Notes under the pieces: generated by a model
The model's database searches: none
The model's input: only the letters and a program-made list of their open reading frames with translations
What the model was told of the DNA's origin: nothing
In this document: positions 19,470 to 64,000 of the stretch, piece by piece
How the letters are laid out: every line of letters begins with the position of its first letter
Numbering within the stretch: the first letter of the stretch is position 1
Source of the DNA: Escherichia phage vB_EcoM_ESCO25
Strand: one strand, 5' to 3'
Sequence record: OM386656.1
Length of the DNA: 64,000 nucleotides
Position numbers and translations under genes: made by a program

Positions 19470-22067
19470 TTAGTGACATGTGGCCCAGGAATTACCCACA
19501 TCATATCCGGCAGTAAGCTGAACGTTAAGATTGTAAAATTCTCCAGCCTTAGTAACAGCTAAAGCAGCAAGTTCACCTGCCCGACTATAGGCTGTAAACC
19601 ATCCACCTTTAGGAGATTCATGAATGTTAGCCCAAATTTGCCCTGTCTCTTTTTCCTTATTATGCTTCCATTCTTCGACTTTAGCAAGACATTCTTTATC
19701 AATTTTCTTTTGTTCTTCAGGATCGTCTACTTTCTTCCAACCTAATGATTCAGGTGAAAACCATTTAAATTCTACAAGGTTACGAGAAACTTCAAGCTGG
19801 GCTTCATCGTGATATGCAATCATTTGTTGCACGAAGTCTTTATTCTTCCAGTCATCTTTAAAGAAGTCAACACTTAGCCCTTCTTCTTCGATCATGTCGT
19901 CATAAATAACCATTGCACGTTTAGCACAGATAACCCCACCACTTTGGAACAGAGAGTTAAGAATCGCGTGAGCAGAACGAGTAGGAACCTTACGACCGTC
20001 AATACCCAAAACATACTGTTTACCAGTCTTAACCCAGAAATCGTTTAAACGTTCTTTAAGACGCGCCAGTGGGAATGCAGCTTCCCAGAAAGCATCGAAC
20101 ACCAGTTGCCCTGTGTATTTATCGCTACCAATTGTTTTAGCAACCTTGTCTGCTTGTGCACCATAAGTGATCCCGTATTTAACAGATTTCGCCGGACTAC
20201 GTTCAAATTTACGCCCAATAGTATCTGTAATACGTTTTGCCATCATGGTATGAACATCGTTAGGTTTCTCTAACAACAGAGCGTTACAATATTCGTGTGG
20301 CTCCGGCTCGTACCGCCAACAGTAGTGTGATTCAATTTTTGCTTCCAAAGAGTCGAAGTCGTAGCCGATCTGGAAGTATTTAGGAACTTCTACACCAAAC
20401 AAGTTACGCATCTCCCATCCAAACAAAGATGTGACACGAGGAATATTAGCTACAGATCTATGCTTCATACGAGAGGTTGCAGCATCACATGTAGCGGCTG
20501 GTGTAGGAATACGCCCATCCGCCCTTACTGCGGCTAAGAAACCTTTATCATATTCTTGATCTTCCTCATCTTCTTCCCAATCAGCACCGCCACCTAAAAT
20601 AGAGTTCCTACGGTGTTTATACGTTAAGTATTCTACAATCTGTGTAGCATAAGGAAATTTCTCACCCAAAGCTTGCAGGTTAGGACAAATCTCTTTTTCC
20701 TGACCTTTGGTAAAACATGGGTTAGTCAATACTTTAAGACCGCGACCTTTACCTTTTGCTATACGCTCTTGAATCTTCCTTTCCAAGGTTTCCGGTGTGC
20801 ACTCCAGATGATCACAACGATCCTGACAAAAATTAGAAGATAGAGTTTGCTCAACGTAAGCTCGAATACCTTTCTGAAGTTCTTCCTCGCTCTTTTTAAT
20901 CTTGGTGCCAGATTTAAGAGTTAAGTCTTTATCTTTATATTCAGACGGTACCCAACCTAATCCTACAAGCCAGTTTTTAATATGGGTTGTATCGTTCAAT
21001 GTTGCAGGGATGTTAGGATCACATAGAGGTTCATCTGCTGCAACTGGCAGTTTCCACTCTTTCCCCAACATAACTAACCACCAATCGCCATCCCTCTCTT
21101 CCAAATGACCATCATGTTTCTTAGCAAAATTGATCATATGGTTAGTTGGCTCTAAGTTCTTTTTAATTTGCAACTTAGGTGGAATAAAAGCCTTAAGATA
21201 GCCTTTTGTTGCTGGTTTAGGTGGCAAAATAGGCTCAACGAGTAAACGAAGACGCTCCATTTCTGCATCCAAAAAAGCAAGGTTCTCTTCTGCTTGCTTC
21301 ATGTTAAAAGCAAACCCACGGTGTTCCTGGCGTGTGATAATGTCTGCTACACGTTGTTCAAGTTCAAATGGACCTTCCCATTTATCATAATCACCCCATT
21401 CTTCCATGAGGTAATTATATACACTTGTGTTGGCTTTGTTATCATAGATACAGTAATAAAGCATATCCGCAGCAAAAGTCTTAAATCGATCTTCTTCTGG
21501 AATCTCTTTACGGAAATCTATTTTTACATCCCCGCCTGCCTTTCGAGAAAGTGCTGCCAAGCTATGTCCTGATTTGCCCTCAATCTTTCGATCTGGGTTT
21601 AACACTTTACTCAAAATTAAGGAGTCAATAAGTTTTACCTTGCTTTTACCCCACGTGTTATATTTAACACTGTAATCTAATCCATAAAACAGTTTTGTAG
21701 CCAACCAGTCATAGTTGATACCGTTGTGTGCCACAGCCATTTCAACCAAATATTCAGGCTTGTCTTTAAAATAACCTTCATGATTAATAAAATCTGGGAA
21801 ATCTTTTAGTTGAAAATGTGTGTAATCTTGCGCCACATATTCTTTAAGAACATATGTATATTTATCATCTGACTCTTCATAAGGACGACCATCAAAAATG
21901 TATTTAGGGCCATCGTGGAAAGCTACTATTTCTCCTGTTTCATGGTTCTCTAAGACAATACAGTGCATTTGAAATGTGTCTTTGAGACGATAAGGACTAG
22001 CTAAATAATCAATAGTATCATTATTCAACAATCCATTTGCTTCAATATCCCATGTAAACTTACTCAC
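19470..22067 (-). CDS. DNA polymerase, family A (T7 gp5-like) with 3'-5' exonuclease domain
   Basis: 865-aa ORF; N-terminal WDIEANGL exo motif; DGRKVPTRSAHAILNSLFQSGG and C-terminal ...NSWATCH parallel T7 DNAP (DGRKVHVRSPHAALNTLLQSAG, ...NWAICH). Confidence 0.9.
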   Translation of the reverse strand: MSKFTWDIEANGLLNNDTIDYLASPYRLKDTFQMHCIVLENHETGEIVAFHDGPKYIFDGRPYEESDDKYTYVLKEYVAQDYTHFQLKDFPDFINHEGYFKDKPEYLVEMAVAHNGINYDWLATKLFYGLDYSVKYNTWGKSKVKLIDSLILSKVLNPDRKIEGKSGHSLAALSRKAGGDVKIDFRKEIPEEDRFKTFAADMLYYCIYDNKANTSVYNYLMEEWGDYDKWEGPFELEQRVADIITRQEHRGFAFNMKQAEENLAFLDAEMERLRLLVEPILPPKPATKGYLKAFIPPKLQIKKNLEPTNHMINFAKKHDGHLEERDGDWWLVMLGKEWKLPVAADEPLCDPNIPATLNDTTHIKNWLVGLGWVPSEYKDKDLTLKSGTKIKKSEEELQKGIRAYVEQTLSSNFCQDRCDHLECTPETLERKIQERIAKGKGRGLKVLTNPCFTKGQEKEICPNLQALGEKFPYATQIVEYLTYKHRRNSILGGGADWEEDEEDQEYDKGFLAAVRADGRIPTPAATCDAATSRMKHRSVANIPRVTSLFGWEMRNLFGVEVPKYFQIGYDFDSLEAKIESHYCWRYEPEPHEYCNALLLEKPNDVHTMMAKRITDTIGRKFERSPAKSVKYGITYGAQADKVAKTIGSDKYTGQLVFDAFWEAAFPLARLKERLNDFWVKTGKQYVLGIDGRKVPTRSAHAILNSLFQSGGVICAKRAMVIYDDMIEEEGLSVDFFKDDWKNKDFVQQMIAYHDEAQLEVSRNLVEFKWFSPESLGWKKVDDPEEQKKIDKECLAKVEEWKHNKEKETGQIWANIHESPKGGWFTAYSRAGELAALAVTKAGEFYNLNVQLTAGYDVGNSWATCH

Positions 22068-22861
22068 TATTCCTCCTTTCTAATGTTCTCCAGAACCCAC
22101 TGAAGTTCTTTTAAACTTAAACTTCTTACTCCCGCAGTTTTACTAGCTTCAGTTTTAAGTAACGGGTAAGCCTCAATGATACGTGTTTTAAGATCAGAAG
22201 TCAAGGCTTTTAAAAAATAGGTAGATGCTTCAGATAAAGAATCTTCTTCTGTTAGCACTTTACCTGCGCTTGCTCCGGCTCTCCTAACAGCTATGTCGTA
22301 GTCTTTGCTGTTACCTAATACGAACAGTCGATTCTCTCCTAAAACAACGGGAGAACGCTTCTGGCTGCGTTTAATCCATATTTGGAATACACAAGGAACA
22401 TCCCAAGGTTCTCCATGAAGAATAAAAGATCCTTTGGGACACTCTTCTTCGTGAAGAAGATGCATATAAGGATTTAGTTTGTGTGCAAAAAAGATTTTTT
22501 GAAATGTGCGAGGTAAGATAAAACAAATACCACCTTCGTTATCCAGCATTTCAGCACAATGGTTAAAGAACTTAATGGCAAGACTAGCGTTTTTTCCGAA
22601 TGGAGGATTACCAACAAAAGCCGTTACACTACCAACAGACTCAACAGATTGAGCTAAAAAATCTGCCTCAATACAATCTTCAAACTTAGGGTCAATATCA
22701 AAAGAAGTTATGTTTTTAAAACAAGAAGAGAAAGCTCCTTCTCCCGCAGATGGTTCTACGTAGTTAGCTTCCTCTCCAAAAATTTCTTTGATCTTATCAC
22801 ATAAGAACCCCGCATAAGCGGGGTTAGTGTAATATTGATCAAGTGTGTTCAACTTGCTCAA
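22067..22861 (-). CDS. SAM-dependent methyltransferase, probably DNA N6-adenine/N4-cytosine class
   Basis: 264-aa ORF; motif I VEPSAGEGAF and catalytic NPPFG. Confidence 0.6.
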   Translation of the reverse strand: MSKLNTLDQYYTNPAYAGFLCDKIKEIFGEEANYVEPSAGEGAFSSCFKNITSFDIDPKFEDCIEADFLAQSVESVGSVTAFVGNPPFGKNASLAIKFFNHCAEMLDNEGGICFILPRTFQKIFFAHKLNPYMHLLHEEECPKGSFILHGEPWDVPCVFQIWIKRSQKRSPVVLGENRLFVLGNSKDYDIAVRRAGASAGKVLTEEDSLSEASTYFLKALTSDLKTRIIEAYPLLKTEASKTAGVRSLSLKELQWVLENIRKEE

Positions 22862-25185: not shown

Positions 25186-25464
25186 TTAAAATGGTTCGTT
25201 AGTCTCCATCATATATTCTGCTTCTAGTTCTTCCATGTGCTTTCTAAATTGGAAAGCAATTTCTGCTACAGTTACATTTAAATCTTTTTCAAAAACTTCT
25301 GTAGATCCTTCATAAAAACGAATACCGTCAATTAAAAGCCCTCCGTGGTAATCCCAATCGCTTTCACGAGAAAGTGGATTAGGTTCTTCATAATAGTAAT
25401 CCACCTCCACGACCAAGGCTTTCCCGTTACGAGTGGTGTATTCAAAATCAAAAGTGTTAATCAT
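25186..25464 (-). CDS. hypothetical protein
   Basis: 92-aa ORF between primase-helicase and glycosyltransferase genes. Confidence 0.5.
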   Translation of the reverse strand: MINTFDFEYTTRNGKALVVEVDYYYEEPNPLSRESDWDYHGGLLIDGIRFYEGSTEVFEKDLNVTVAEIAFQFRKHMEELEAEYMMETNEPF

Positions 25465-26408
25465 TATAGCTCCTCAAATAAAAGTCTACGACGCTCATTC
25501 AACACATCAATGTGATAATGAGTCCTGACATACTTAGCTAATGCTAATCCTTTCTCCATGCAAACATCGGGAGCACTTAATAAGTATTCCGTAATATCTT
25601 TCCACTCGGAAGGTGTTTCAGCAAAGAATAACAAATCTTTAAACTCTTGTGTATGATAATTCTCACGAGGAGAGCAGATTAAAGGTAAACCCTTAGCACC
25701 TGCCTCAAGAATTTTAAGATTGCTTTTTGCATTATTAAACACGTTATCGATCAATGGTGCAAGACTGATTTGATGACCATCGTAAGATTCCATGTAGTTG
25801 GCATATGGTCTTACACCTTCATAAACACAAGTTGGTGCTACATTTTCCCTGATTAAAGACCATTCACGACTACTTAAAACTTCAGAATCCCTACGAAAAC
25901 CACATATTGTAAGATCTTTACCAAAATCGGGCAAGATAGCCAAATCTTGTTTATGTGTTTCACTTCCAGCCCAGACTAATGGAGTTTTGGAGTAGCGATC
26001 ACGGGTCAACACAAATTGACCTTCATCGTAAGGAAGTCCATTAGGGATTATGTGCACATTATCATTGTATTGTGAAAGTTCAACTTGCAAGGCAGGTGTC
26101 GTAGTTGTAACAAGATCACTGTGCTCTAAAAACCATTTTAAATGTTCACGAATACCTGATTCAAAAATACCTTCTAACATGTGTCCTTTTGGAATAACTA
26201 AAGAGTCATCCAAATCCATAACCATTTTAAAGCCCAGGTTTTTAAGGGCTAAAAAGCCCTCTTTACCTTTTGTTGGCACTCCGTTAAAAACGAAAACGTT
26301 GTGTTTAGGTTGTGAAGAGAACTGCCTTGAGTAAGGCAGCACTACCCTATGGAAATCGCAGACACTATAATTGATTCCGTTACGATTGTCAAGAATTATT
26401 TGTCCCAT
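25464..26408 (-). CDS. glycosyltransferase (intact copy of tandem paralog pair)
   Basis: 314-aa ORF; C-terminal KSNLKILEAGAKGLPLICSP... resembles GT-B group-1 glycosyltransferase core; paralog immediately upstream. Confidence 0.6.
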   Translation of the reverse strand: MGQIILDNRNGINYSVCDFHRVVLPYSRQFSSQPKHNVFVFNGVPTKGKEGFLALKNLGFKMVMDLDDSLVIPKGHMLEGIFESGIREHLKWFLEHSDLVTTTTPALQVELSQYNDNVHIIPNGLPYDEGQFVLTRDRYSKTPLVWAGSETHKQDLAILPDFGKDLTICGFRRDSEVLSSREWSLIRENVAPTCVYEGVRPYANYMESYDGHQISLAPLIDNVFNNAKSNLKILEAGAKGLPLICSPRENYHTQEFKDLLFFAETPSEWKDITEYLLSAPDVCMEKGLALAKYVRTHYHIDVLNERRRLLFEEL

Positions 26409-26415
26409 ACTTCAC

Positions 26416-27364
26416 CTACAAACTTTCAATAACCTGGCGTCGCAATTCGTTTGCATCTGCCAGATTATAATGTGTTCGAACATGTTCCGCTAAGAACAAG
26501 CCGCGATCTTCCCGATAGTTCGGATTTCGAAGAAGCTTAACAATTTCGTAATGCCATTCTGCTTTATTCTCTGCATAAGCAACAGCGCGAGCATCTACAG
26601 GGTTAAAATAAGGTAATACCTTAGAACAAACAATCGGAATACCTTTTGCCCCCAGCTTCAAGGATTTTGAGATTACTTTTACAATTATTAAAATCATTAT
26701 CTACCAAAGGAGCTATAGCAATAGCATGACTTTCGTAAACACTCATGTAATTATCTAAATCTTTTACAGCAGCTTTATATTTGGCATTTGGTAAATTTCT
26801 ACGGATCTTAATCCACTCTTGCCCTGTGATACTCTGCGATGCTTCATATCCTGCAATAGTAAGAAGTTCATCATCGAAAGTATTAGAGACTAGTCGTAAA
26901 TCGGGTTCGTGACTAGCACCGCCAGCCCATACAACAGGGGTACCGGATGAACGATCATTTGACAAAGTGAATTGTCCGCTATCAAAAGGAAGTGCATTTC
27001 GGATCACAACAACATTCCTATTTAAGTGACGGATCTTATATGCCAAATATTCCGTAGTCACAATGACCACATCGGCAAGCTTAACCATAGCTACAATAGC
27101 ATGAGTGTTTGACTCATATAAACTTGCTAAATAATGTTCTGGATTAAGTTGGTAGAAATCATCTAAATCTACAACAATCTTAACACCTTGACGTTTCAGG
27201 GACAGAACATATTCTGCCCCTTTAGAATGAATACGGTTAAACACGACAACATCTTTCTTAGGCTGAAAATTATTGTTGTTAAATGGTATAACAATACGAT
27301 GATAATCACAACCACTGTGAGGTTTTGCATCAATTTTCAGTTTAGTCCATTTTTTATTTGACAT
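26416..27364 (-). pseudogene. glycosyltransferase paralog interrupted by a +1 frameshift in a G5/C5 homopolymer (or sequencing error / programmed shift)
   Basis: ORFs 26621..27403 and 26416..26697 together align to the intact paralog; frames switch at C5 run 26649-26653 (G5 on coding strand); four Gs would restore ...EAGAKGIPIVCSK... Confidence 0.6.
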
Positions 27365-28037
27365 GTGCCAGTGCCTCCTCATAAGAAATTCGGATTTTCC
27401 CATTTTTAATATCTTCTAAAGACGCTTTATATTCTTCCCAGTTAATGCCAATAGCAGCTTCTTTCTCTTCTTTTGTCAGATTAGCAAAAGGCATAGGATT
27501 GTTTCCAAAAACATCGTCTGGGTGGATATAAGCCATGATACGAAGTGGACAAGGTATTGCCTGAATGCCCTGATTCAAACCAGCAGCTTTCAAACGGTGT
27601 ACCCATTCAGCATCTTCAAAACCATAGCCGTGAGTGTAAGGGCGGAAATAACCCATCTTCTCAACAACGGCACGAGAATACATTGCAAATTGACACATTG
27701 CAAGTTCCCAGAGAATAACTTCTCCTTTACTCCCAACAACTTTATCTTTGAAATACTCCGGCATACCAAAGAAATCCCATCCTCCAGAGACAGCTTGATC
27801 TACAAAATATGTTTCCCATCCCTCCATGATTGGGTAGCAATCGTCGTCAAAAATAAACCAATAATCATAACCTTCTTCATAAAACTGGTGCATAAGTTCA
27901 TTCCTGGCGTAAGCTACACCTTTACGATCTGGATCGTTGAATACTCGAAAATCTGCATGTGGATCTGTTACAAGATAGTCTTTAAGTGGACGGACACCTA
28001 CAGTGATAACACCCACTCCGATTTTAATATTTTCCAT
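27354..28037 (-). CDS. putative glycosyltransferase, GT-A-like with DDD motif
   Basis: 227-aa ORF; WFIFDDDCYP acidic motif; adjacent to other glycosyltransferase genes. Confidence 0.5.
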   Translation of the reverse strand: MENIKIGVGVITVGVRPLKDYLVTDPHADFRVFNDPDRKGVAYARNELMHQFYEEGYDYWFIFDDDCYPIMEGWETYFVDQAVSGGWDFFGMPEYFKDKVVGSKGEVILWELAMCQFAMYSRAVVEKMGYFRPYTHGYGFEDAEWVHRLKAAGLNQGIQAIPCPLRIMAYIHPDDVFGNNPMPFANLTKEEKEAAIGINWEEYKASLEDIKNGKIRISYEEALAHVK

Positions 28038-28045
28038 TTTCTCTC

Positions 28046-28609
28046 CTAGATAGTTTTACTGTGATCGTGACAGTGTAATAAATGATGTATAGACCGTTGA
28101 GGATTTGTTTGACCTAATCTGTAAATGTGAAACAGATACATTCCCCGCATCAATCCTAACCTTTTTCCTTTTTCATGTAAAGTGCGAGAGAAAATTAGGT
28201 CGAATTGGATAGATTTTTCTTCGAAAGGAATTTCATTCCACAATGATTTTCTAAAAAGCAAAAAGAAACCTGCCAGAGGTGTTCCGAAAGGAACTTCTTC
28301 AACACTCACTTTATGATATTCTCTTGCAATCTTAGCATATTCTATATGGTTTAGAATATTTGGATCATCGTTAATTTGGTTAGAGAAAAGCTGATAACCA
28401 CTACCTAACCTGTTACAAGTTGCACCTATTACATCAAAAGGCGGGTTTGACATAATAAGCTCTTCAAGCATAGATGGTTGATCAGGCAGGAGGAACATTG
28501 TATCGGTATCTCTTAAGCACACCCAACTATCATCTGGAAGAACGGCAATAGCTTCATTGATAGCCTTGCCGATATTTCCTGTCAGATAGGGAGTAATATA
28601 ATAAATCAT
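28046..28609 (-). CDS. putative glycosyltransferase-like protein (DxD motif)
   Basis: 187-aa ORF; CLRDTDTMFL motif; context only. Confidence 0.4.
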   Translation of the reverse strand: MIYYITPYLTGNIGKAINEAIAVLPDDSWVCLRDTDTMFLLPDQPSMLEELIMSNPPFDVIGATCNRLGSGYQLFSNQINDDPNILNHIEYAKIAREYHKVSVEEVPFGTPLAGFFLLFRKSLWNEIPFEEKSIQFDLIFSRTLHEKGKRLGLMRGMYLFHIYRLGQTNPQRSIHHLLHCHDHSKTI

Positions 28610-29893: not shown

Positions 29894-29914
29894 GAGGGGG
29901 ACTTCTCCCCCCTC
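29894..29914 (-). promoter_or_regulatory. G/C hairpin downstream of terD (weak terminator?)
   Basis: GAGGGGG-ACTTCT-CCCCCCTC inverted repeat; no strong U-run. Confidence 0.35.
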
Positions 29915-40662: not shown

Positions 40663-41113
40663 TCGCCGTTTTGGTCCATAATCTTTGATTATCTGACCCT
40701 CTGAAAGGTTTTGTGGTTGGATTGTTTATTTCATACTTTCCGTCTACAATAATGTCAACAAGATTTTTAATATACAAAGGCACTTCCTCAAAAGTATATC
40801 CTGTATACACCATTATATCTTTGCTTGACCCATAAACGTCTCTAACCTTTTCTATAAGGTTTTTAACATTGTAAATATTCTGCGGATCTAATGGTTCTCC
40901 TCCTAAAATTGTTAAACCTTTTACAAACGGTCTTGACAAATCTTTTAAAACTTGCTCTACATTTTCGTTAGTGAACGGTTTCCCATAAGAATAAGACCAG
41001 GCTTTCTGGTTAAAACAGCCACGACAACCGTGGCTACAACCACTAACCCAGAGGGAGCACCTAACTCCCTCACCATTAATAAGATCTACAGGTTCATATC
41101 CTGCAAAATTCAA
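40643..41113 (-). CDS. nrdG: anaerobic ribonucleotide reductase activating protein (radical SAM)
   Basis: 156-aa ORF; CSLWVSGCSHGCRGCFN cysteine cluster; directly downstream of nrdD. Confidence 0.85.
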   Translation of the reverse strand: MNFAGYEPVDLINGEGVRCSLWVSGCSHGCRGCFNQKAWSYSYGKPFTNENVEQVLKDLSRPFVKGLTILGGEPLDPQNIYNVKNLIEKVRDVYGSSKDIMVYTGYTFEEVPLYIKNLVDIIVDGKYEINNPTTKPFRGSDNQRLWTKTASGWQSD

Positions 41114-42924
41114 AGATGTTTCTCCCTTTGCAAAACTTCCTGCATTTTACCTTTGTTATAAGGCCGTGAATTAGGGGCAGAAAGATACCCTGATACACGT
41201 CTAACTACAGAAATAGTTTCTTCTTCATGGTTGCCACAATTAGGACACTCAAACCCTTTAGCCGTTGCCTTAAATTCTCCATGAAAACCACACTTAAAGC
41301 ATTGATCCACGGGCTGATTAATACCAAAATAGTGAATATGTTCATAAGCGTAGTCTACTAAAGTCTCCAAAGCTTCTAAGTTATTCTTTAAGTTTGGTGT
41401 TTCGACATAACTTATGTTACCACCATTGCTAATCTGTGCAAAACCTGCTTCATAATCCCATTTTTCAAAAGGATTTGTTACCAACCATACAGGTTGATGA
41501 AAAGAATTAGTAAGATAGTCTCTTTCTACCAGACCTGGATATTTTTCATTTAAAGCTGTTGCAAATTTATAGCACAAGGATTCTGCTGGAGTTCCATAAA
41601 GACTAAATGCCAACTTAGATCGTTCTTTAAACACAGCACACACATCTTTCATATGTTGCAGAATGTTTTTACCTAGTTCCTTTTTATCTTTTTCCTCTGG
41701 ATAAAGGATTTCCAAAGCTTCGGCAAGACCTACATAACCAATACTAATAGAAGCATAACCACCTTCAAACAAAGCACCAATTTCATCGTTGGCATTTAAA
41801 CGCGCTAAAGCCCCTTCCATGAAAAGAATAGGGTTTTCAGATGCTTTGGTATGTCTGATACGGTTTACACGTAGCATGTGAGCATCGTAGGCTATCTCCA
41901 TATGTTTATTAAGAAGATCGGTGAAAGATTCTCCTTTACTTCTCGCTTCCGCAGCAATCAGAGGCAAGTTGATAGAAACTACTCCAAGGTTGAATCGTCC
42001 ATCATATTTTTCTCCTTGTTCGGTGGCATAGTACGACAAAAAGGAACGACAACCCATACTCGTAACGGTACCATCTGCTGATCCCGTAACTTCTTTGTTC
42101 AAAGGAACAGAAATAAAATCTGGATAAATACGATCAGCACAACATGCCAAAGCTTGTTGCTTAAGGTCGTAGTTAGGATCACTAGGTTTCATGTTAACAC
42201 CTTCTTGTAAAAAGAAAATAACTTTAGGGAATACAGGCGTTACATGATCTTTACCTAGACCGTTACTATGCACTTTAAGATAGTTAGCTGTGATCATTCT
42301 GCCAAAAACAGAGGTATCCAGACCCATACTGATTGTAATAAAAGGAGATTGTCCATTAACACTCATTAAAGTGTTAACCTGATACAAAAGAGTTTGCATA
42401 GCGTCATATACATCTTGTTCGGTCATTTCTAGGGCTTCTTTCCTTGCATAACAACCGTAGCGACGTTTGGTTATCTCCATGTTTTTAAGGAAACTGGCTT
42501 CAACATAAGGACTAAGACCTTTATCAATGTGCGCACACGTCTGACCTCCATACTGACTGGAGGCAACAGCTTGGATGATTTGAGTTAGCACTGTAGTAGC
42601 TACTCCAATAGATTTTGGTTTTTCTATCTGTGCAGCACCGATCTTAAAACCATTCTCTAACATATCTTGATAATTAACAAGACAACAGTTTGTAAGAGGA
42701 GAGAGCAGATAATCCAAGTCGTGAATATGTCCAAAACCTTCTGTATGCCATTCTGACAAGTTTTTTGGCAGTATCTGTGTCATTGCCATATGTTTGCTTA
42801 AAATCCCCGCCAAGAGATCCCTGTGCGTGTTAACAAGGTGGGAAGGTTTGTTTGCATTCTCTCTAGTGTATGTTTCTGAAGTGCGATCTAAAAAAGAAAA
42901 AACATCTTGGTACAAATCTTTCAT
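41110..42924 (-). CDS. nrdD: anaerobic ribonucleoside-triphosphate reductase (class III)
   Basis: 604-aa ORF; C-terminal CxxC...CxxC then glycyl-radical motif RRVSGYL. Confidence 0.85.
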   Translation of the reverse strand: MKDLYQDVFSFLDRTSETYTRENANKPSHLVNTHRDLLAGILSKHMAMTQILPKNLSEWHTEGFGHIHDLDYLLSPLTNCCLVNYQDMLENGFKIGAAQIEKPKSIGVATTVLTQIIQAVASSQYGGQTCAHIDKGLSPYVEASFLKNMEITKRRYGCYARKEALEMTEQDVYDAMQTLLYQVNTLMSVNGQSPFITISMGLDTSVFGRMITANYLKVHSNGLGKDHVTPVFPKVIFFLQEGVNMKPSDPNYDLKQQALACCADRIYPDFISVPLNKEVTGSADGTVTSMGCRSFLSYYATEQGEKYDGRFNLGVVSINLPLIAAEARSKGESFTDLLNKHMEIAYDAHMLRVNRIRHTKASENPILFMEGALARLNANDEIGALFEGGYASISIGYVGLAEALEILYPEEKDKKELGKNILQHMKDVCAVFKERSKLAFSLYGTPAESLCYKFATALNEKYPGLVERDYLTNSFHQPVWLVTNPFEKWDYEAGFAQISNGGNISYVETPNLKNNLEALETLVDYAYEHIHYFGINQPVDQCFKCGFHGEFKATAKGFECPNCGNHEEETISVVRRVSGYLSAPNSRPYNKGKMQEVLQREKHL

Positions 42925-42994
42925 TATTAATCCTTATTTTGTGAGTAGAACTATTATTCTACCTCTTTCAACCGAAAAAAGCTTTGAGGGAAAT

Positions 42995-53745: not shown

Positions 53746-53910
53746 ATGATCTCTTTAGAATCAATAGCTTTTAAGAAGGGGTATACCGCAGGGTTCAAGT
53801 TTGGTATGTTTAATAAAGTAAATCCATATTGTCCAATGACACACAAAAAGGAATTCGAAGAATGGGAAGATGGATTTTCTAAAGGCTATCAGGCAAAAGG
53901 TTGGTTGTAA
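53746..53910 (+). CDS. small hypothetical protein
   Basis: Start at ATG 53746 (SD GAGGAG); 54 aa. Confidence 0.45.
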   Translation: MISLESIAFKKGYTAGFKFGMFNKVNPYCPMTHKKEFEEWEDGFSKGYQAKGWL

Positions 53911-58790: not shown

Positions 58791-59009
58791 GCGCAGGGGC
58801 GGTGTTTGTCTCGCGCTCCCGTGTCCCCTCGCCATGTAATAAGAATAACAGATCCAGCCAGGAAAGCAAGCGATTATTTTATCTTTACATTTCTTTACAA
58901 ATATATAGCACCCAGCCTACCGGCGATCAACCTTCCAACCAGTGCCCCCTGGTATGTTAGCCCCGCCTTTACGCCGTGGGGTGGCGCTTCCTCTTCTGTA
59001 TGTAAAACA

Positions 59010-59036
59010 GTATAAGCCCGATCCCTGGGCTTGTCA
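59010..59036 (-). terminator. hairpin downstream of - strand gene 59040..59306
   Basis: AAGCCC-(7 nt)-GGGCTT inverted repeat; T-rich flank on both strands. Confidence 0.4.
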
Positions 59037-59039
59037 AGA

Positions 59040-59306
59040 TTATTTTTTGTTTTCTTGCCAGGATAGGACACCTAACCAAAAATACATATCGCCCCGCGCC
59101 CCTGGTGGTATCTTGCTTTCCCCGCCGCCACTGCAAGCCCATAGATAACCATTTGCGAACGTATCAAAATGATCTATCTCTTCCACCTTATGATCGCCCA
59201 GGTTGAGAACGGTTTCAACCTTTAAGCCCGTTGCGCTTGCTACCTGGTGCACCGTGCCGCCTTGCCAGCCCAATGAGTGCATAAGGTGTAATGTAGTATT
59301 TGTCAT
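59040..59306 (-). CDS. hypothetical protein in GC-richer right segment
   Basis: 88-aa ORF with GC-rich codon choice; own promoter plus 5' hairpin; SD AAGGG. Confidence 0.5.
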   Translation of the reverse strand: MTNTTLHLMHSLGWQGGTVHQVASATGLKVETVLNLGDHKVEEIDHFDTFANGYLWACSGGGESKIPPGARGDMYFWLGVLSWQENKK

Positions 59307-59328
59307 GATATCGCCCTTTCTTTGTTGT

Positions 59329-59382
59329 GCGCCCTGGTTGGCGCGGTAGAAAGATAATAGCCCTTTTCTTTATATATAGCAA
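59329..59382 (-). promoter_or_regulatory. promoter plus 5' stem-loop for - strand gene 59040..59306
   Basis: On - strand TTGCTA, 17-nt spacer, TATTAT, about 9 nt, then GCGCC-AACCAG-GGCGC hairpin, then SD. Confidence 0.5.
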
Positions 59383-59414
59383 GCAAAAAGAAAATAAAAA
59401 AGATTGAAAAATGG

Positions 59415-59473
59415 TTGACGTTAACCAGGCGGCGGCGTAGTATTCATCTTGTAGGGCGGCAATGGTGCCGCTC
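59415..59473 (+). promoter_or_regulatory. promoter-hairpin unit 1 (hairpin type A)
   Basis: TTGACG 59415-59420, 17-nt spacer, TAGTAT 59438-59443, 10 nt, GGGCGGC-AATGGT-GCCGCTC 59454-59473. Confidence 0.6.
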
Positions 59474-59492
59474 ACTATTTGGAGTTAAGATC

Positions 59493-59690
59493 ATGGCAAC
59501 ATTGCACATTGTGGCGAAAGCTGGACAAATCAACGTAGTGGTAAACGGTTTTACTGAGTTCAGTCACCCCCAGGATGATCATGAAACGGTTTTATCTTTC
59601 ATTGATTCCCTGTTAGAAATGGGAGTCATTACAGAAGACCAGCACGCTACAAAATGCAAGCGCGTTAATCAAATCGCAGGAATAGAATAA
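59493..59690 (+). CDS. small early-region protein
   Basis: ATG 59493 after promoter-hairpin unit and SD GGAG; upstream extension of track ORF lacks SD. Confidence 0.5.
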   Translation: MATLHIVAKAGQINVVVNGFTEFSHPQDDHETVLSFIDSLLEMGVITEDQHATKCKRVNQIAGIE

Positions 59691-59697
59691 AAACTAT

Positions 59698-59756
59698 TGA
59701 CAACAAACAACAACCTGATAAGATGTATCACATAGGGCGGGAAGTGGTTTCCCGCT
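59698..59756 (+). promoter_or_regulatory. promoter-hairpin unit 2 (hairpin type B)
   Basis: TTGACA 59698-59703, 16-nt spacer, TAAGAT 59720-59725, linker GTATCACATAGG, GCGGGAA-GTGGT-TTCCCGC 59738-59756. Confidence 0.6.
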
Positions 59757-59780
59757 CGTAACAGAAGAGAGATTATCATC

Positions 59781-60053
59781 ATGGCATCATATAGCGCAAC
59801 AATGATCGTAGCTGGCACAACTGGTAAACCTATGAGCGGTGGCGGATCTTTCGCTAATATCAATATTGACGGGCGTTTATCCCTGGACGCAGCGATCGCT
59901 ATTGCACGGGAAACATTTAAGAAAGAATGTAATTTCAACAAGCAAGATTATCTCGGTTTCGCTATTGAAAAAACCGCGCGCTTTGTTGATTATAAAAGCC
60001 CGAAAATGGTTGATACTACACTAAAAGCGCAAGATGTAGCGTTTTTGCTTTAA
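59781..60053 (+). CDS. small early-region protein
   Basis: 90-aa ORF after promoter-hairpin unit, SD AGAAGAGAG. Confidence 0.5.
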   Translation: MASYSATMIVAGTTGKPMSGGGSFANINIDGRLSLDAAIAIARETFKKECNFNKQDYLGFAIEKTARFVDYKSPKMVDTTLKAQDVAFLL

Positions 60054-60056
60054 GGC

Positions 60057-60111
60057 TTGACATTAACGAATAATTTGTTAATATGTTACATAAAGCGGGA
60101 ATAGTTCCCGC
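60057..60111 (+). promoter_or_regulatory. promoter-hairpin unit 3 (hairpin type B)
   Basis: TTGACA 60057-60062, 16-nt spacer, TAATAT 60079-60084, then GCGGGAA-TAG-TTCCCGC 60095-60111. Confidence 0.6.
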
Positions 60112-60129
60112 TATTTGTAAGGTGGTAGA

Positions 60130-60387
60130 ATGTTTTACATCAAATTAAAAGGTCACGTGATCGCGTTCAAAGATAACGCTTTTTACAGATTAGCAAAATA
60201 TGCGTTAATACATCCCCACTATGTTTATATAAGGAGGCGTGATGAAATAAATATCTTTGATCAAACAACATGCGAGAACATCGAGATCCGCAAGGTTGGC
60301 GTACGTGATTATCGTACATCTTTCTACCCTTGCAAGGATTCAGCAAGTCTTTTTAAAGTATGCCAATTGTTGAAAAAAGGTGGTTAA
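60130..60387 (+). CDS. small early-region protein
   Basis: 85-aa ORF after promoter-hairpin unit, SD AAGGTGG. Confidence 0.5.
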   Translation: MFYIKLKGHVIAFKDNAFYRLAKYALIHPHYVYIRRRDEINIFDQTTCENIEIRKVGVRDYRTSFYPCKDSASLFKVCQLLKKGG

Positions 60388-60388
60388 T

Positions 60389-60946
60389 ATGGGCCGCGAA
60401 TATGTGATCCAGTCTTGGGTAAAACATGAAGCAGATGATCCGCGCATCATTCCCGATCATCTTATCGATGAATCCACGGGATATAGCGGTGAGCAAATAG
60501 GTAACAGATTAGCACGTAGTAACGGCAACGTAAAAGCGCGTTATGTGCGCCCTGGTTGGCTGGCAAATGGTAACGCTGATTTATCCAGTGCGGAAGATGC
60601 GAGCGACGGCGCGAAAGATAATCCTTTGTACAAAGTTGATCCGGCTTTTCGTGTCCTGGATGAATACCCCAGCAAGATAGCGGCGCTCGATCAGGCCCTG
60701 GAAAGTAAGCGCATCACCTGGACCGCTTACAACATGGCAAAAAACGTACTTGATGGTAAATTGATTCAAGCTGAAAGAAAATTAGCCAAAATTGCAGCCA
60801 TAGCCCAGGAGGAAGACGAGGAGACAACGGAAGAGGAAGAGTACGAAGAGATCCCGCCGTTGTTGTGTGTTGATGCTTTTCCTGATTATCAGCCGACAGA
60901 GGAAGAAAAAAGGATCGCACTAGAAAACTTTGAAAATAGTCTTTGA
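60389..60946 (+). CDS. hypothetical protein with highly acidic C-terminal region
   Basis: ATG 60389; C-terminal EEDEETTEEEEYEEIPP tract. Confidence 0.5.
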   Translation: MGREYVIQSWVKHEADDPRIIPDHLIDESTGYSGEQIGNRLARSNGNVKARYVRPGWLANGNADLSSAEDASDGAKDNPLYKVDPAFRVLDEYPSKIAALDQALESKRITWTAYNMAKNVLDGKLIQAERKLAKIAAIAQEEDEETTEEEEYEEIPPLLCVDAFPDYQPTEEEKRIALENFENSL

Positions 60947-61001
60947 CATATCGCCGCCACTGGCATAATATTTACCACGTAGGGCGGCAATGGTGCCGCT
61001 C
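60943..61001 (+). promoter_or_regulatory. promoter-hairpin unit 4 (hairpin type A)
   Basis: TTGACA 60943-60948, 17-nt spacer, TAATAT 60966-60971, 10 nt, GGGCGGC-AATGGT-GCCGCTC 60982-61001. Confidence 0.6.
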
Positions 61002-61028
61002 ATAGTGAAATTATGCAAGAGGCTTACA

Positions 61029-61124
61029 ATGATTAATAAAGAAAATAGCTTGACGGTTGGAACGATTAACGCTATCATTCTAGCCGTTCCATTTTGGATT
61101 GTAGTAGCGGCTATTATTTTCTAA
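61029..61124 (+). CDS. hydrophobic micro-protein (31 aa)
   Basis: Promoter-hairpin unit then SD AAGAGG then ATG; single TM-like segment; below track cutoff. Confidence 0.4.
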   Translation: MINKENSLTVGTINAIILAVPFWIVVAAIIF

Positions 61125-61132
61125 AAATATTC

Positions 61133-61193
61133 TTGACAACGTTTTTTAATCTGATAAGATGTATCACATAGGGCGGCGGAATACTTCCCCGCC
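61133..61193 (+). promoter_or_regulatory. promoter-hairpin unit 5 (hairpin type C, bulged)
   Basis: TTGACA 61133-61138, 16-nt spacer, TAAGAT 61155-61160, linker GTATCACATA, GGCGGCGGAA-TAC-TTCCCCGCC 61172-61193. Confidence 0.6.
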
Positions 61194-61214
61194 AAAACAA
61201 AAAAGGGTAACACA

Positions 61215-61577
61215 ATGAGCAAGCAAATCAATACTATCATGTTAAACCTGGTATCCTTCCGCGATGATATGAAAAATTTACCACGTGAAACGGTTGATAT
61301 TCATGTTTCAGCTTATCGCGCCCTTATTGACATGTTACCGCTAAAACGTGATCAACATGCCGCTAACATGATGCTTAATGCTATGCTTAAAAAGATGATT
61401 CAAACGGATCTCATCCTGGCGTATGAGTATCAAGGGCGCTTATATGCTACTTACAACAAGGCGGTACCTGGTCTGGGAAGTACCGAAGAGTTGCACGGCT
61501 TAAACCTGGATCAGAACACTTGGGATAGTATGCGCCGCGTTATGGTATGGGCCGAAAGCGGTAAAATTTACGAATAA
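61215..61577 (+). CDS. small early-region protein
   Basis: 120-aa ORF after promoter-hairpin unit, SD AAAGGG. Confidence 0.5.
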   Translation: MSKQINTIMLNLVSFRDDMKNLPRETVDIHVSAYRALIDMLPLKRDQHAANMMLNAMLKKMIQTDLILAYEYQGRLYATYNKAVPGLGSTEELHGLNLDQNTWDSMRRVMVWAESGKIYE

Positions 61578-61582
61578 AACGG

Positions 61583-61639
61583 TTGACACTGTTTAAAATT
61601 CTGGTATAGTTTATCACGTAGGGCGGCAATGGTGCCGCC
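61583..61639 (+). promoter_or_regulatory. promoter-hairpin unit 6 (hairpin type A)
   Basis: TTGACA 61583-61588, 16-nt spacer, TATAGT 61605-61610, 10 nt, GGGCGGC-AATGGT-GCCGCC 61621-61639. Confidence 0.6.
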
Positions 61640-61659
61640 AACAATAAAAGGTTAACATC

Positions 61660-61839
61660 ATGACTATCATTGCAAAAACTGAGATTATAGGTTTAGATTC
61701 GATCCTCCTGGCTTATGAGGAAACTTTAAAAATGTATGTAGTGACCTATGGTGATTATGTGCGTGAATACGAATACATTGATCTTGCTTTCGAATGTTAC
61801 ATTCGCCAGGTCAATAAAGCCTATAACGATTATCGTTAA
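61660..61839 (+). CDS. small early-region protein (59 aa)
   Basis: Promoter-hairpin unit then SD AAAAGG then ATG; below track cutoff. Confidence 0.45.
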   Translation: MTIIAKTEIIGLDSILLAYEETLKMYVVTYGDYVREYEYIDLAFECYIRQVNKAYNDYR

Positions 61840-61858
61840 AAGTTTTAGTCTTATACTA

Positions 61859-61910
61859 TTGACAATGAGTGATAGTATAAGCATAATAACTTTTATCGGG
61901 AATACTTCCC
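61859..61910 (+). promoter_or_regulatory. promoter-hairpin unit 7 (degenerate hairpin)
   Basis: TTGACA 61859-61864, 17-nt spacer, CATAAT 61882-61887, then weak GGGAA-TAC-TTCCC 61898-61910. Confidence 0.5.
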
Positions 61911-61936
61911 ACTAACCAAAAAAAGAGAGTAATATC

Positions 61937-62302
61937 ATGGCTATTAATATCAATGTTTCCTCTTATGCTACCCTGGCTGACACGGCTAAAATTGAATTAT
62001 CCAGCATTGAGGCGGTGCATATTAGCGCCCGTCGTTGGTTTCAACAGTCCTACGGTAACACATATTTTTCTTTAATGGTTGACGTTGAGATCGGCGGTAA
62101 ACTGATCGAGGTGGTTAACGTTCCGTTTCAATATGGTTATGGTGATCATTTTGATACCGTCGCCCTGGAAGAATTTAGCAAGGTTATTAATATGGAAGGT
62201 AAAGAGTTTTCACGCGGCGCGTATCTTTCCCGTTTTTGCCGTGACAATGGGATCACTGTATACAGTCATGCAAGCGATGTTAAACGTAAAAAAGATTTAT
62301 AA
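61937..62302 (+). CDS. small early-region protein
   Basis: 121-aa ORF after promoter-hairpin unit, SD AAGAGAG. Confidence 0.5.
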   Translation: MAININVSSYATLADTAKIELSSIEAVHISARRWFQQSYGNTYFSLMVDVEIGGKLIEVVNVPFQYGYGDHFDTVALEEFSKVINMEGKEFSRGAYLSRFCRDNGITVYSHASDVKRKKDL

Positions 62303-62308
62303 AAAGCA

Positions 62309-62371
62309 TTGACAGCACGAATAAAAAGAGTAAACTGTATTACATCAAGGCGGCGGAATGGTCCACCGCCT
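62309..62371 (+). promoter_or_regulatory. promoter-hairpin unit 8 (hairpin type C)
   Basis: TTGACA 62309-62314, 16-nt spacer, TAAACT 62331-62336, linker GTATTACATCA, AGGCGGCGG-AATGGT-CCACCGCCT 62348-62371. Confidence 0.6.
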
Positions 62372-62394
62372 AACAAAGAGAAGAGGAAAACATC

Positions 62395-62562
62395 ATGATC
62401 ACTTTCGCTACCCGTGAAGCCGCTCGCAACGTTGCCCGTAAAGTTAACGCCGCCAACCTGGGCGCTACGCTTAAAGCCCCTGTAAAAGATGAATCAGGAA
62501 AATGGATCTTCCCTGGTCTGCGTCATGCTGACAAGTTAGGTACTTTAAGCCTTAAAAAATAA
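62395..62562 (+). CDS. small basic early-region protein (55 aa)
   Basis: Promoter-hairpin unit then SD GAGAAGAGGAAAA then ATG; shares first 21 nt with 62637 ORF. Confidence 0.45.
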   Translation: MITFATREAARNVARKVNAANLGATLKAPVKDESGKWIFPGLRHADKLGTLSLKK

Positions 62563-62565
62563 TCG

Positions 62566-62603
62566 TTGACTTTTCGTTATAGCGCCTTATAATGGGCGCT
62601 ATA
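62566..62603 (+). promoter_or_regulatory. promoter unit 9 with inverted repeat enclosing the -10 box
   Basis: TTGACT 62566-62571, 16-nt spacer, consensus TATAAT 62588-62593; 9-bp arms TATAGCGCC (62578-62586) and GGCGCTATA (62595-62603) flank the -10. Confidence 0.6.
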
Positions 62604-62636
62604 GAGAAGAGAAACCACTACTAACAAGGAAACATC

Positions 62637-62858
62637 ATGATCACTTTCGCTATTGTCGCCGTTGTCGCTGGTCAGGTTTACATAAACGATACATTCACCA
62701 CAGAAGACAAGGCCGCAGGAGACATAACCGCCGTTTACAATGAGTGCAAGGCAGTAGAAAGGATGTTAGCGCCTTGTATGCTAATGAGTGAACGCCAGGA
62801 CGGGATAACAGTATTTACTAACATTGAAACAGGGTACCAAATGGTAGTAACAAAATAA
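62637..62858 (+). CDS. small early-region protein with hydrophobic N-terminus
   Basis: 73-aa ORF after promoter with palindrome around -10. Confidence 0.5.
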   Translation: MITFAIVAVVAGQVYINDTFTTEDKAAGDITAVYNECKAVERMLAPCMLMSERQDGITVFTNIETGYQMVVTK

Positions 62859-62861
62859 AGC

Positions 62862-62918
62862 TTGACACGGATTTAATTTTTAGTAAACTGTTACACGTAG
62901 GGCGGGAATAGTTCCCGC
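62862..62918 (+). promoter_or_regulatory. promoter-hairpin unit 10 (hairpin type B)
   Basis: TTGACA 62862-62867, 16-nt spacer, TAAACT 62884-62889, linker GTTACACGTAGG, GCGGGAA-TAG-TTCCCGC 62902-62918. Confidence 0.6.
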
Positions 62919-62937
62919 TCAAAAAGAGAGAAAGACC

Positions 62938-63291
62938 ATGAAAGCACAAAATGCAATTAAAGAGTACATCCTTGCCGCTATCGATTTTAATGATTACGGT
63001 ATTACAACCGAAAAAGAGAAGATCGCGGAATTGATGCGCCGTTTTAATTCCGAGTACTGGTACCCTGATAACCAATCACGTTTTAATTATAGTATTGTTA
63101 AAGCACTTGCATCATGGTTACAAGGCTTGCCATCAGATATCAATATCGCTTTCGAATATTGGGAAATTGATCGCCTGTTAACATCCTGGGGATACATTAA
63201 AGAGAATAGCAGCGATGATAAAATCCAACGAGAAAGGGAAAATTATTGGCTTTATATTGCAGGCGTGATCCTTGCTTGCTCTTATGAATGA
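62938..63291 (+). CDS. small early-region protein
   Basis: 117-aa ORF after promoter-hairpin unit, SD AGAGAGAAAGA. Confidence 0.5.
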   Translation: MKAQNAIKEYILAAIDFNDYGITTEKEKIAELMRRFNSEYWYPDNQSRFNYSIVKALASWLQGLPSDINIAFEYWEIDRLLTSWGYIKENSSDDKIQRERENYWLYIAGVILACSYE

Positions 63292-63297
63292 TAAACC

Positions 63298-63351
63298 TTG
63301 ACAATTTTACAAAACAGTTTAAATTAACAATATAGCGGCAATGGTGCCGCT
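63298..63351 (+). promoter_or_regulatory. promoter-hairpin unit 11 (hairpin type A variant)
   Basis: TTGACA 63298-63303, about 16-nt spacer, TAAATT-like -10, then AGCGGC-AATGGT-GCCGCT 63334-63351. Confidence 0.55.
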
Positions 63352-63370
63352 CATATGAAGAGGAAACAAA

Positions 63371-63517
63371 ATGAATACATCTAATCGCGCAGAAAAAATT
63401 CAATCTTCCAAGATCCGCAAGGCCTGGAACGAGGAAGTGATCCGCAAAGGCGACAAGCGCAATAAAACAAAGCGTGGGAAGAGTGACAAATATAATTGGA
63501 TGGATTTAGAGGATTAA
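63371..63517 (+). CDS. highly basic micro-protein (48 aa)
   Basis: Promoter-hairpin unit then SD AAGAGGAAA then ATG; Lys/Arg-rich; terminator directly downstream. Confidence 0.45.
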   Translation: MNTSNRAEKIQSSKIRKAWNEEVIRKGDKRNKTKRGKSDKYNWMDLED

Positions 63518-63525
63518 CATAACAA

Positions 63526-63552
63526 GGGGCGCACCAAGCGCCCTTTCTTTTT
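63526..63552 (+). terminator. rho-independent terminator after 48-aa basic ORF
   Basis: GGGGCGC-ACCAA-GCGCCC then TTTCTTTTT. Confidence 0.7.
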
Positions 63553-63573
63553 ACATGTAGAGGATAAACAAAG

Positions 63574-63759
63574 ATGACTTTAAGCGAGCTTAAAACAGCC
63601 TACAACGCAACGTTAAAAATAGCCGTGCGTTACCGTGACGAATACGGTTTTATTGCGCAGGGCGTGATCCTGGGCTTTTCTGACGATGGTTTGATCTATG
63701 TTGATGCACATCACAATAAGGTTAAACCTGAAAACGTCATTAGCATAAAATATCTTTAA
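63574..63759 (+). CDS. small early-region protein
   Basis: 61-aa ORF, SD GAGGAT. Confidence 0.45.
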   Translation: MTLSELKTAYNATLKIAVRYRDEYGFIAQGVILGFSDDGLIYVDAHHNKVKPENVISIKYL

Positions 63760-63765
63760 AAGTGG

Positions 63766-63824
63766 TTGACACCATAACCGGACCTGTTAAACTGTATTAC
63801 ATCAGGCGGGGAATAGTTCCCACC
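63766..63824 (+). promoter_or_regulatory. promoter-hairpin unit 12 (hairpin type B variant)
   Basis: TTGACA 63766-63771, 16-nt spacer, TAAACT 63788-63793, linker GTATTACATCA, GGCGGGGAA-TAG-TTCCCACC 63805-63824. Confidence 0.55.
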
Positions 63825-63843
63825 ATACAAAAAGGTAAATATT

Positions 63844-64000
63844 ATGATCACCGCAAAACAAGAAAAAATCATTATCGACGTTGCAGCCGTTGCTGCTATT
63901 GCTATTATTGGATCTTATTATGACACCGCGCGTCCTTCCTCCTTGCATGAGGTCGCCGCCGTTGCATCAGTTGGCGTACTGTTTTACGTTGGTAAACGCT
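63844..64000 (+). CDS. early-region protein, 3' end beyond window
   Basis: ATG 63844 after promoter-hairpin unit (SD AAAGG); hydrophobic N-terminus; runs off window end. Confidence 0.45.
   Translation, partial: MITAKQEKIIIDVAAVAAIAIIGSYYDTARPSSLHEVAAVASVGVLFYVGKR

Follow-up and report, generated by a model that had tools for sequence, protein, structure and literature searches.

Glycosyltransferase gene cluster and the split gene

The 64,000-nt stretch of Escherichia phage vB_EcoM_ESCO25 analyzed here (GenBank accession number OM386656.1; hereafter, the window) belongs to Phapecoctavirus (Stephanstirmvirinae), the phAPEC8-like virulent Escherichia coli myoviruses. The region is 97 to 99.9% identical to some 60 Phapecoctavirus records, the closest being that of Escherichia phage AV125. 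The minus strand carries an array consisting, in order, of a 187-aa gene, a 227-aa gene, a split GT-B glycosyltransferase gene, an intact paralog of the split gene, a 92-aa open reading frame (ORF), and a primase/helicase gene. The 187-aa gene (positions 28046 to 28609, minus strand), the fourth gene of the glycosyltransferase cluster, belongs to PHROG 14179 and is annotated as a glycosyltransferase in the RefSeq entries of ESCO5 and ZCKP1. The 227-aa gene (27354 to 28037, minus strand) also carries a glycosyltransferase annotation, and 11 nt of it are shared with the start of the split gene. The start codon of the split gene is the ATG at 27364, which is preceded by GAGGAGG and matches the annotated start in AV125, ESCO5, and ZCKP1; an in-frame ATG farther upstream, at 27403, has no homolog support. 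The intact paralog (25464 to 26408, minus strand; 314 aa) has its own AGGTGA Shine-Dalgarno sequence. A promoter and terminator scan across the cluster added nothing.

The split gene occupies positions 26416 to 27364 of the minus strand. It is 949 nt long and frameshifted in the window, and the ancestral version with four Gs comprises 315 codons. The shift lies in a run of five Gs on the coding strand (26653 to 26649; five Cs on the plus strand), at the codons for G238 and A239, where the minus strand reads 5'-GAA GCT GGG GGC AAA AGG TAT TCC GAT TGT TTG TTC TAA-3' (positions 26660 to 26621, TGAAGCT GGGGG CAAAAGGTATTCCGATTGTTTGTTCTAA). The ORF at 26621 to 27403 (minus strand) ends in KILEAGGKRYSDCLF (also written NLKILEAGGKRYSDCLF) and a stop codon, and the ORF at 26416 to 26697 (minus strand) includes LGAKGIPIVCSK in its frame (also written LGAKGIPIVCSKVLPYF, with the end ESL and a stop codon). 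From the supported start, the truncated frame (26621 to 27364) encodes 247 aa, made up of 238 native residues and the tail GKRYSDCLF, and its TAA stop at 26621 to 26623 lies nine codons past the run. The C-terminal remnant (26416 to 26649, minus strand) is in the +1 frame and comprises 77 codons, A239 to L315, followed by a TAG stop. The frameshift at 26649 to 26653, and the restoration of a continuous frame by four Gs, had been proposed in an earlier note made from the sequence alone, and both were borne out: deletion of one G yields an uninterrupted 315-aa protein that is identical to the AV125 gene product. A single extra G thus breaks one of two adjacent glycosyltransferase genes.

The same note had described the two genes as tandem paralogs, and the comparison agrees. 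The repaired protein and its downstream neighbor share about 41% identity across residues 16 to 315, and both match PHROG 7162 ("glycosyltransferase") from end to end, with E values of 6e-149 and 3e-145. The 227-aa gene and the GT-B gene of about 315 aa form a conserved, overlapping two-gene module. Pseudomonas silvicola and Enterobacter huaxiensis prophages contain homologous overlapping pairs (contigs L028, 7357 to 8960, and L029, 6354 to 8921), with identities of 38 to 43% for the 227-aa partner and 43 to 46% for the GT-B protein. The prophage modules are located between late-regulation or lysis genes and terminase genes, and in the Enterobacter prophage a gene for an NAD-dependent sugar epimerase/dehydratase lies immediately upstream. 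Because of this placement among late, lysis, and terminase genes, glycosylation of virion proteins or another late-stage glycosylation is hinted at rather than a function in replication. The 227-aa protein also has a weak match to PF20691 (TET-associated glycosyltransferase; E = 0.0013, below the cutoff) and a match to the PHROG of the T4 beta-glucosyl-HMC-alpha-glucosyltransferase (E = 5e-6), which may be a faint hint of an ancestry in DNA-base glycosylation. A literature search on the function of Phapecoctavirus glycosyltransferases, or on phAPEC8_ev052, retrieved genome descriptions and no functional study.

Predicted fold and consequences of the truncation

Among 5.8 billion proteins searched, the repaired protein has 209 relatives, some of them encoded by Pseudomonas and Enterobacter prophages; almost all of the 120 relatives listed are about 300 to 345 aa long. 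The AlphaFold2 model of the repaired protein (pLDDT, 95.5; pTM, 0.92) has two Rossmann-like halves of alternating strands and helices. When the model was compared with the PDB by Foldseek, GT-B glycosyltransferases, chiefly GT4-type enzymes, made up almost all of the top 50 matches, which were aligned over nearly the full length. The best were BshA, PglA, GlgM, MshA, and TarM, with E values of about 1e-9, a probability of 1.00, and TM scores of about 0.6 over roughly 300 to 320 columns. Sequence-level matches are weaker. The C-terminal domain of the repaired protein scored 22.8 bits against Pfam Glyco_trans_1_4 (gathering cutoff, 27) and 20.7 bits against Glyco_trans_1_2 (cutoff, 25), the paralog scored 25.2 bits against a cutoff of 25, and searches of the repaired protein against PDB sequences and NCBIfam models returned nothing useful. 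Since the Pfam scores lie at or below the gathering thresholds and the PDB and NCBIfam sequence searches gave no matches, the assignment at the fold level is the stronger evidence. The repaired protein is confidently modeled as a divergent, phage-borne glycosyltransferase of the GT-B fold and GT4-like type, with predicted glycosyltransferase activity. It resembles the GT4 enzymes BshA (3MBO), PglA (8DVZ), GlgM (6TVP), and MshA (3C4Q) in fold, whereas its sequence identity to them is only 11 to 17% and its length of 315 aa is shorter than their approximately 360 to 400 aa. Unlike these enzymes, its family is borne by phages and prophages and is paired with an annotated glycosyltransferase of about 220 aa.

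The reading frame changes precisely at the boundary of G238 and A239, inside the motif K-S-N-x-K-x-L-E-A-G|A-K-G-x-P of the C-terminal domain and within helix 232 to 239 of the model. In an alignment of 83 family members, K229, S230, N231, K233, L235, E236, and G238 are invariant, and A237, A239, K240, G241, and P243 are at least 90% conserved. The residues lost include A239, K240, G241, and P243 and the invariant Y252, V295, R296, N305, and R308. According to the model, the 77 missing residues make up the second half of the C-terminal Rossmann domain, with two of its strands, and three helices at the C terminus. The conserved L-E-A-G-A-K-G-x-P helix, a putative acidic and glycine-rich donor-binding motif, lies in this domain, with which GT4 enzymes bind the sugar-nucleotide. 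The truncated 247-aa product should be inactive, since the cut splits an invariant motif and removes this half of the domain.

Intact alleles in related phages

The locus was compared with that of related phages, a check that the earlier note had proposed, and the extra G occurred in none of the 64 matching GenBank phage records. Each of the 64 aligned with 99 nt to the 100 nt of window positions 26601 to 26700, and the 99-mer repaired to four Gs matched all of them without gaps, at 100% identity in at least 10. Orthologs are annotated as intact 948-nt genes in AV125, ESCO5, ZCKP1, and KKP3954. In addition, the site was read directly in contigs of relatives, 25 in all, that had been located in GenBank, ENA, and Logan assemblies through exact copies of the neighboring paralog and of the primase. 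All of the 24 complete copies have an intact 948-nt ORF, with GGGG in 22 and GGAG in 2. The 25th contig, a metagenome scaffold (L014), appeared to have a second split of the gene, which turned out to be a run of scaffold Ns.

Neither the 247-aa truncated product, its 260-aa version from the ATG at 27403, nor the 93-aa C-terminal ORF was present in an index of 153 billion genes, and a 21-mer with five Gs had no match in metagenome contigs. The collection of complete E. coli genomes likewise yielded no match. The 21-mer with five Gs matched Candidatus Electrothrix laxa among the GTDB genomes; the similarity is confined to the 21 to 22 nt of the pattern, and the match was rejected as chance. Exact-pattern scans of IMG/VR found neither the five-G nor the four-G version and are uninformative, as this collection apparently contains no close relatives. 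Across the records, contigs, and collections compared, the extra G is unique to the window.

The AV125 allele and those of three independent ENA contigs (L010, L012, and L025) are identical to the window allele at the other 948 positions. Because these four independent intact alleles differ from it by one G only, the lesion, if real, would be very young. The C-terminal remnant has no substitutions relative to the intact alleles, and neither side of the shift carries a further lesion of the kind seen in a decaying pseudogene. Over 16 distinct intact alleles, pN/pS was 0.034 (0.035 before the shift site and 0.026 after it), and 84 of the 102 variable sites were third codon positions. Judged from these substitution patterns, the intact alleles are under strong purifying selection, including the segment after the shift, and the gene is functional in the other phages.

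Independent lesions in the sister paralog

The downstream paralog, equivalent to window positions 25464 to 26408, is disrupted in two other lineages, in both of which the upstream paralog is intact. In phAPEC8_ev052 (L030, 2592 to 3535), a 1-nt deletion converts A5 to A4 at the K-S-N motif, about nine codons upstream of the position equivalent to the G run of the window. In vB_EcoM_10C3_SA_NWU (L031, 2592 to 3536) and 118_SA_NWU, a GAA-to-TAA nonsense mutation is found at codon 176. Loss of function is therefore demonstrably tolerated at this glycosyltransferase locus. These observations suggest that loss of either GT-B gene still allows the phage to grow in the laboratory, even though purifying selection in nature is strong.

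Origin of the extra G

The earlier note had left four readings of the frameshift, namely, a sequencing or assembly error, recent pseudogenization, slipped-strand phase variation, and programmed frameshifting. The former two still stand, and the latter two found no support and are, even taken together, very unlikely. As a phase-variable contingency locus, the G tract would switch the gene on with four Gs and off with five within phage populations. Glycosyltransferase genes are classic targets of such switching in bacteria, and the A5-to-A4 frameshift near the equivalent site in the sister paralog of phAPEC8_ev052 is a second case in a homopolymer. However, hypermutable mononucleotide tracts are typically at least 7 to 8 nt long, and the present one has just 4 to 5 nt; no tract-length polymorphism was found in the 64 phage records or the 24 directly read contigs, so that all relatives are in the "on" state, and some lineages have the run interrupted as GGAG, with no sign of selection for keeping it. 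In Neisseria lgt, Campylobacter cgtA/wlaN, and the receptor-binding genes of Campylobacter phages, the length of a poly-G tract sets the reading frame; the bacterial genes are surface-glycan glycosyltransferase genes, and the window resembles them only superficially in having a G tract in such a coding sequence. The known tracts are about 8 to 17 nt long and polymorphic between and within isolates, whereas the tract described here has 4 nt or reads GGAG and reaches 5 nt in the window alone. Phase variation is accordingly regarded as highly improbable. Programmed +1 ribosomal frameshifting or transcriptional slippage on GGG-G, by which a five-G template would give both a full-length enzyme and a truncated isoform, has a next to negligible probability. 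A peptidyl-tRNA-Gly on GGG in the P site can re-pair (GCU GGG G GCA), as is known from sufD-type sites, and a low-level spontaneous shift is mechanistically possible. Against a programmed event, every ortholog is a single continuous frame, and for this reason no recoding signal can have evolved. Moreover, the A-site codon of the 0 frame is GGC, which is neither a stop nor rare, with the next stop nine codons away; the surrounding 141 nt (26560 to 26700, minus strand) fold no better than shuffled sequences (z = +0.9); the tRNA scan found no tRNA gene in the window and thus no suppressor tRNA; and no separate Shine-Dalgarno-like element was seen in the local sequence upstream of the run. Known transcriptional-slippage tracts are far longer than five bases. 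Compared with frameshifting of the prfB (RF2) type, the +1 direction and the possible P-site re-pairing are common features, whereas the window gene lacks a conserved shifted arrangement, a stop or hungry codon in the A site, a correctly spaced upstream Shine-Dalgarno sequence, and a structure. As far as sequence comparison can tell, the lesion thus lacks the hallmarks of a phase-variable tract as well as those of a programmed +1 frameshift.

An unprogrammed, one-off change, whether a real mutation or an artefact, is very probably what the extra G represents. Under the artefact reading, the phage truly has GGGG and an intact gene, and the fifth G is a homopolymer miscall or a polishing error. 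A one-base difference in a run within an otherwise identical, constrained allele is typical of consensus or base-calling errors, and none of the other genomes examined has a broken copy of the gene. Two further +1 changes in G/C runs (C6 at 29907 and G4 at 63526) are private to the window, as is a length change in an A run at 61575. Homopolymer indels confined to a single genome, some of them coding, are also seen in other Phapecoctavirus entries (KKP3954, and AV125 at window position 53777). Singleton frameshifts in G runs are therefore not peculiar to the window among the deposited genomes. Several observations weigh on the other side. Of about 95 AV125 genes that are matched in the window, no gene apart from this one is split by a frameshift; the remaining matches with poor coverage are mosaic tail-fiber genes, the polymerase insert, and a gene that runs off the end of the window. 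In a six-genome alignment of a 23-kb conserved core, this G is the one unambiguous singleton indel of the window, which also has a C6-versus-C5 difference at 29907, and the other five genomes have one to five each, so that the count for the window is not higher. General homopolymer miscalling is disfavored because none of the 120 A/T runs of at least 5 nt in this core has a length change private to the window. Four further homopolymer changes that are private to the window (29907, +C; 61575, -A; 63526, +G; 63818, -C) are apparently located between genes, in hairpins or promoter spacers; such placement fits natural variation filtered by selection, whereas random errors would be expected to fall mostly in the approximately 90% of the sequence that is coding. 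A real mutation is further supported by the tolerated losses of the sister paralog, of which the GAA-to-TAA substitution cannot be a homopolymer miscall. We therefore slightly favor a genuine, very recent loss-of-function mutation, to which we assign a probability of roughly 0.55, over an assembly error, which is a serious possibility falling short of even odds.

If the mutation is genuine, strand slippage would have lengthened the GGGG tract of codons Gly238 and Ala239 by one G as the phage lineage replicated, most probably while the sequenced stock was being isolated or propagated. Ribosomes would then read GGG GGC AAA AGG and so on until they stop at the TAA nine codons on, the 247-aa product would be catalytically dead, and the downstream remnant would be expected to remain without translation. 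The loss was presumably tolerated as that of an accessory gene dispensable for plaque formation on the propagation host. The lesion and its singularity, the constraint on intact alleles, the fold, and the place of the cut are results of the comparisons and the model above; slippage as the origin, the inactivity of the product, and dispensability are what we infer from them.

Other variable features of the window

Several other differences among Phapecoctavirus genomes were observed in the window. The DNA polymerase I gene (19473 to 22079, minus strand; compared with L001, 19584 to 22916) occurs in the genus at lengths of about 865 aa, as in the window, 1110 aa, as in AV125 and others, and 1189 aa. 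The AV125 polymerase contains an insert of about 244 aa (residues 584 to 827) that is missing from the window, and no intein or homing-endonuclease domain was detected in it with Pfam at an E value of ≤0.001. Compared with the window and four further genomes, phage 536P1, also of Phapecoctavirus, has a private 771-bp insertion at window position ~42051. The insertion site lies in the gene for the large subunit of the anaerobic ribonucleotide reductase (ORF 41113 to 42933), and the insertion may be a mobile intron or homing-endonuclease element.

Short runs also vary at sites apart from the glycosyltransferase gene. A terminator-like intergenic hairpin at 29896 to 29912 reads G5...C6 in the window and G5...C5 in relatives, with a private G6...C5 in AV125, and another at 63526 to 63545 reads GGGGCGC...GCGCCC in the window and GGGCGC...GCGCCC in relatives. 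In a small ORF at window position 53777 (L002, about 21597 to 21701), the GGGG of the window corresponds to a private G5 in AV125 and to AGGG in the other four relatives; the product is annotated with 34 aa in AV125 and 54 aa in ESCO5. The region from ~59000 to 64000 consists of an array of short plus-strand ORFs, in which some intergenic spacers share near-identical units in which a near-consensus promoter (TTGACA-N17-TATAGT) comes after a GC-rich hairpin. Genomes differ in how many of these units they have, and AV125 has three extra small ORFs in this region.

Implications

The lesion is an ordinary one-off homopolymer frameshift. Singleton frameshift pseudogenes and consensus errors in phage genomes have the same pattern of one genome, a short homopolymer, and one base; comparable singletons are found in AV125, KKP3954, and phAPEC8_ev052, and nothing sets the window apart from them. 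Its biological weight is very small. Annotators should mark the gene as frameshifted, or as possibly affected by a sequencing error, instead of entering two hypothetical proteins.

A broader reading would combine this lesion with the one in phAPEC8_ev052 as a recurrent switching off of both paralogs at short homopolymers beside the same catalytic motif, a low-rate contingency mechanism. Such recurrent switching, if true, would generate phage subpopulations differing in the glycosylation of virion proteins or DNA in a virulent coliphage, and we consider it a long shot. If the lesion itself is real, the isolate is a natural knockout of one glycosyltransferase in a four-gene cluster, and its comparison with near-isogenic intact phages such as AV125 could reveal the glycosylation target of the cluster.
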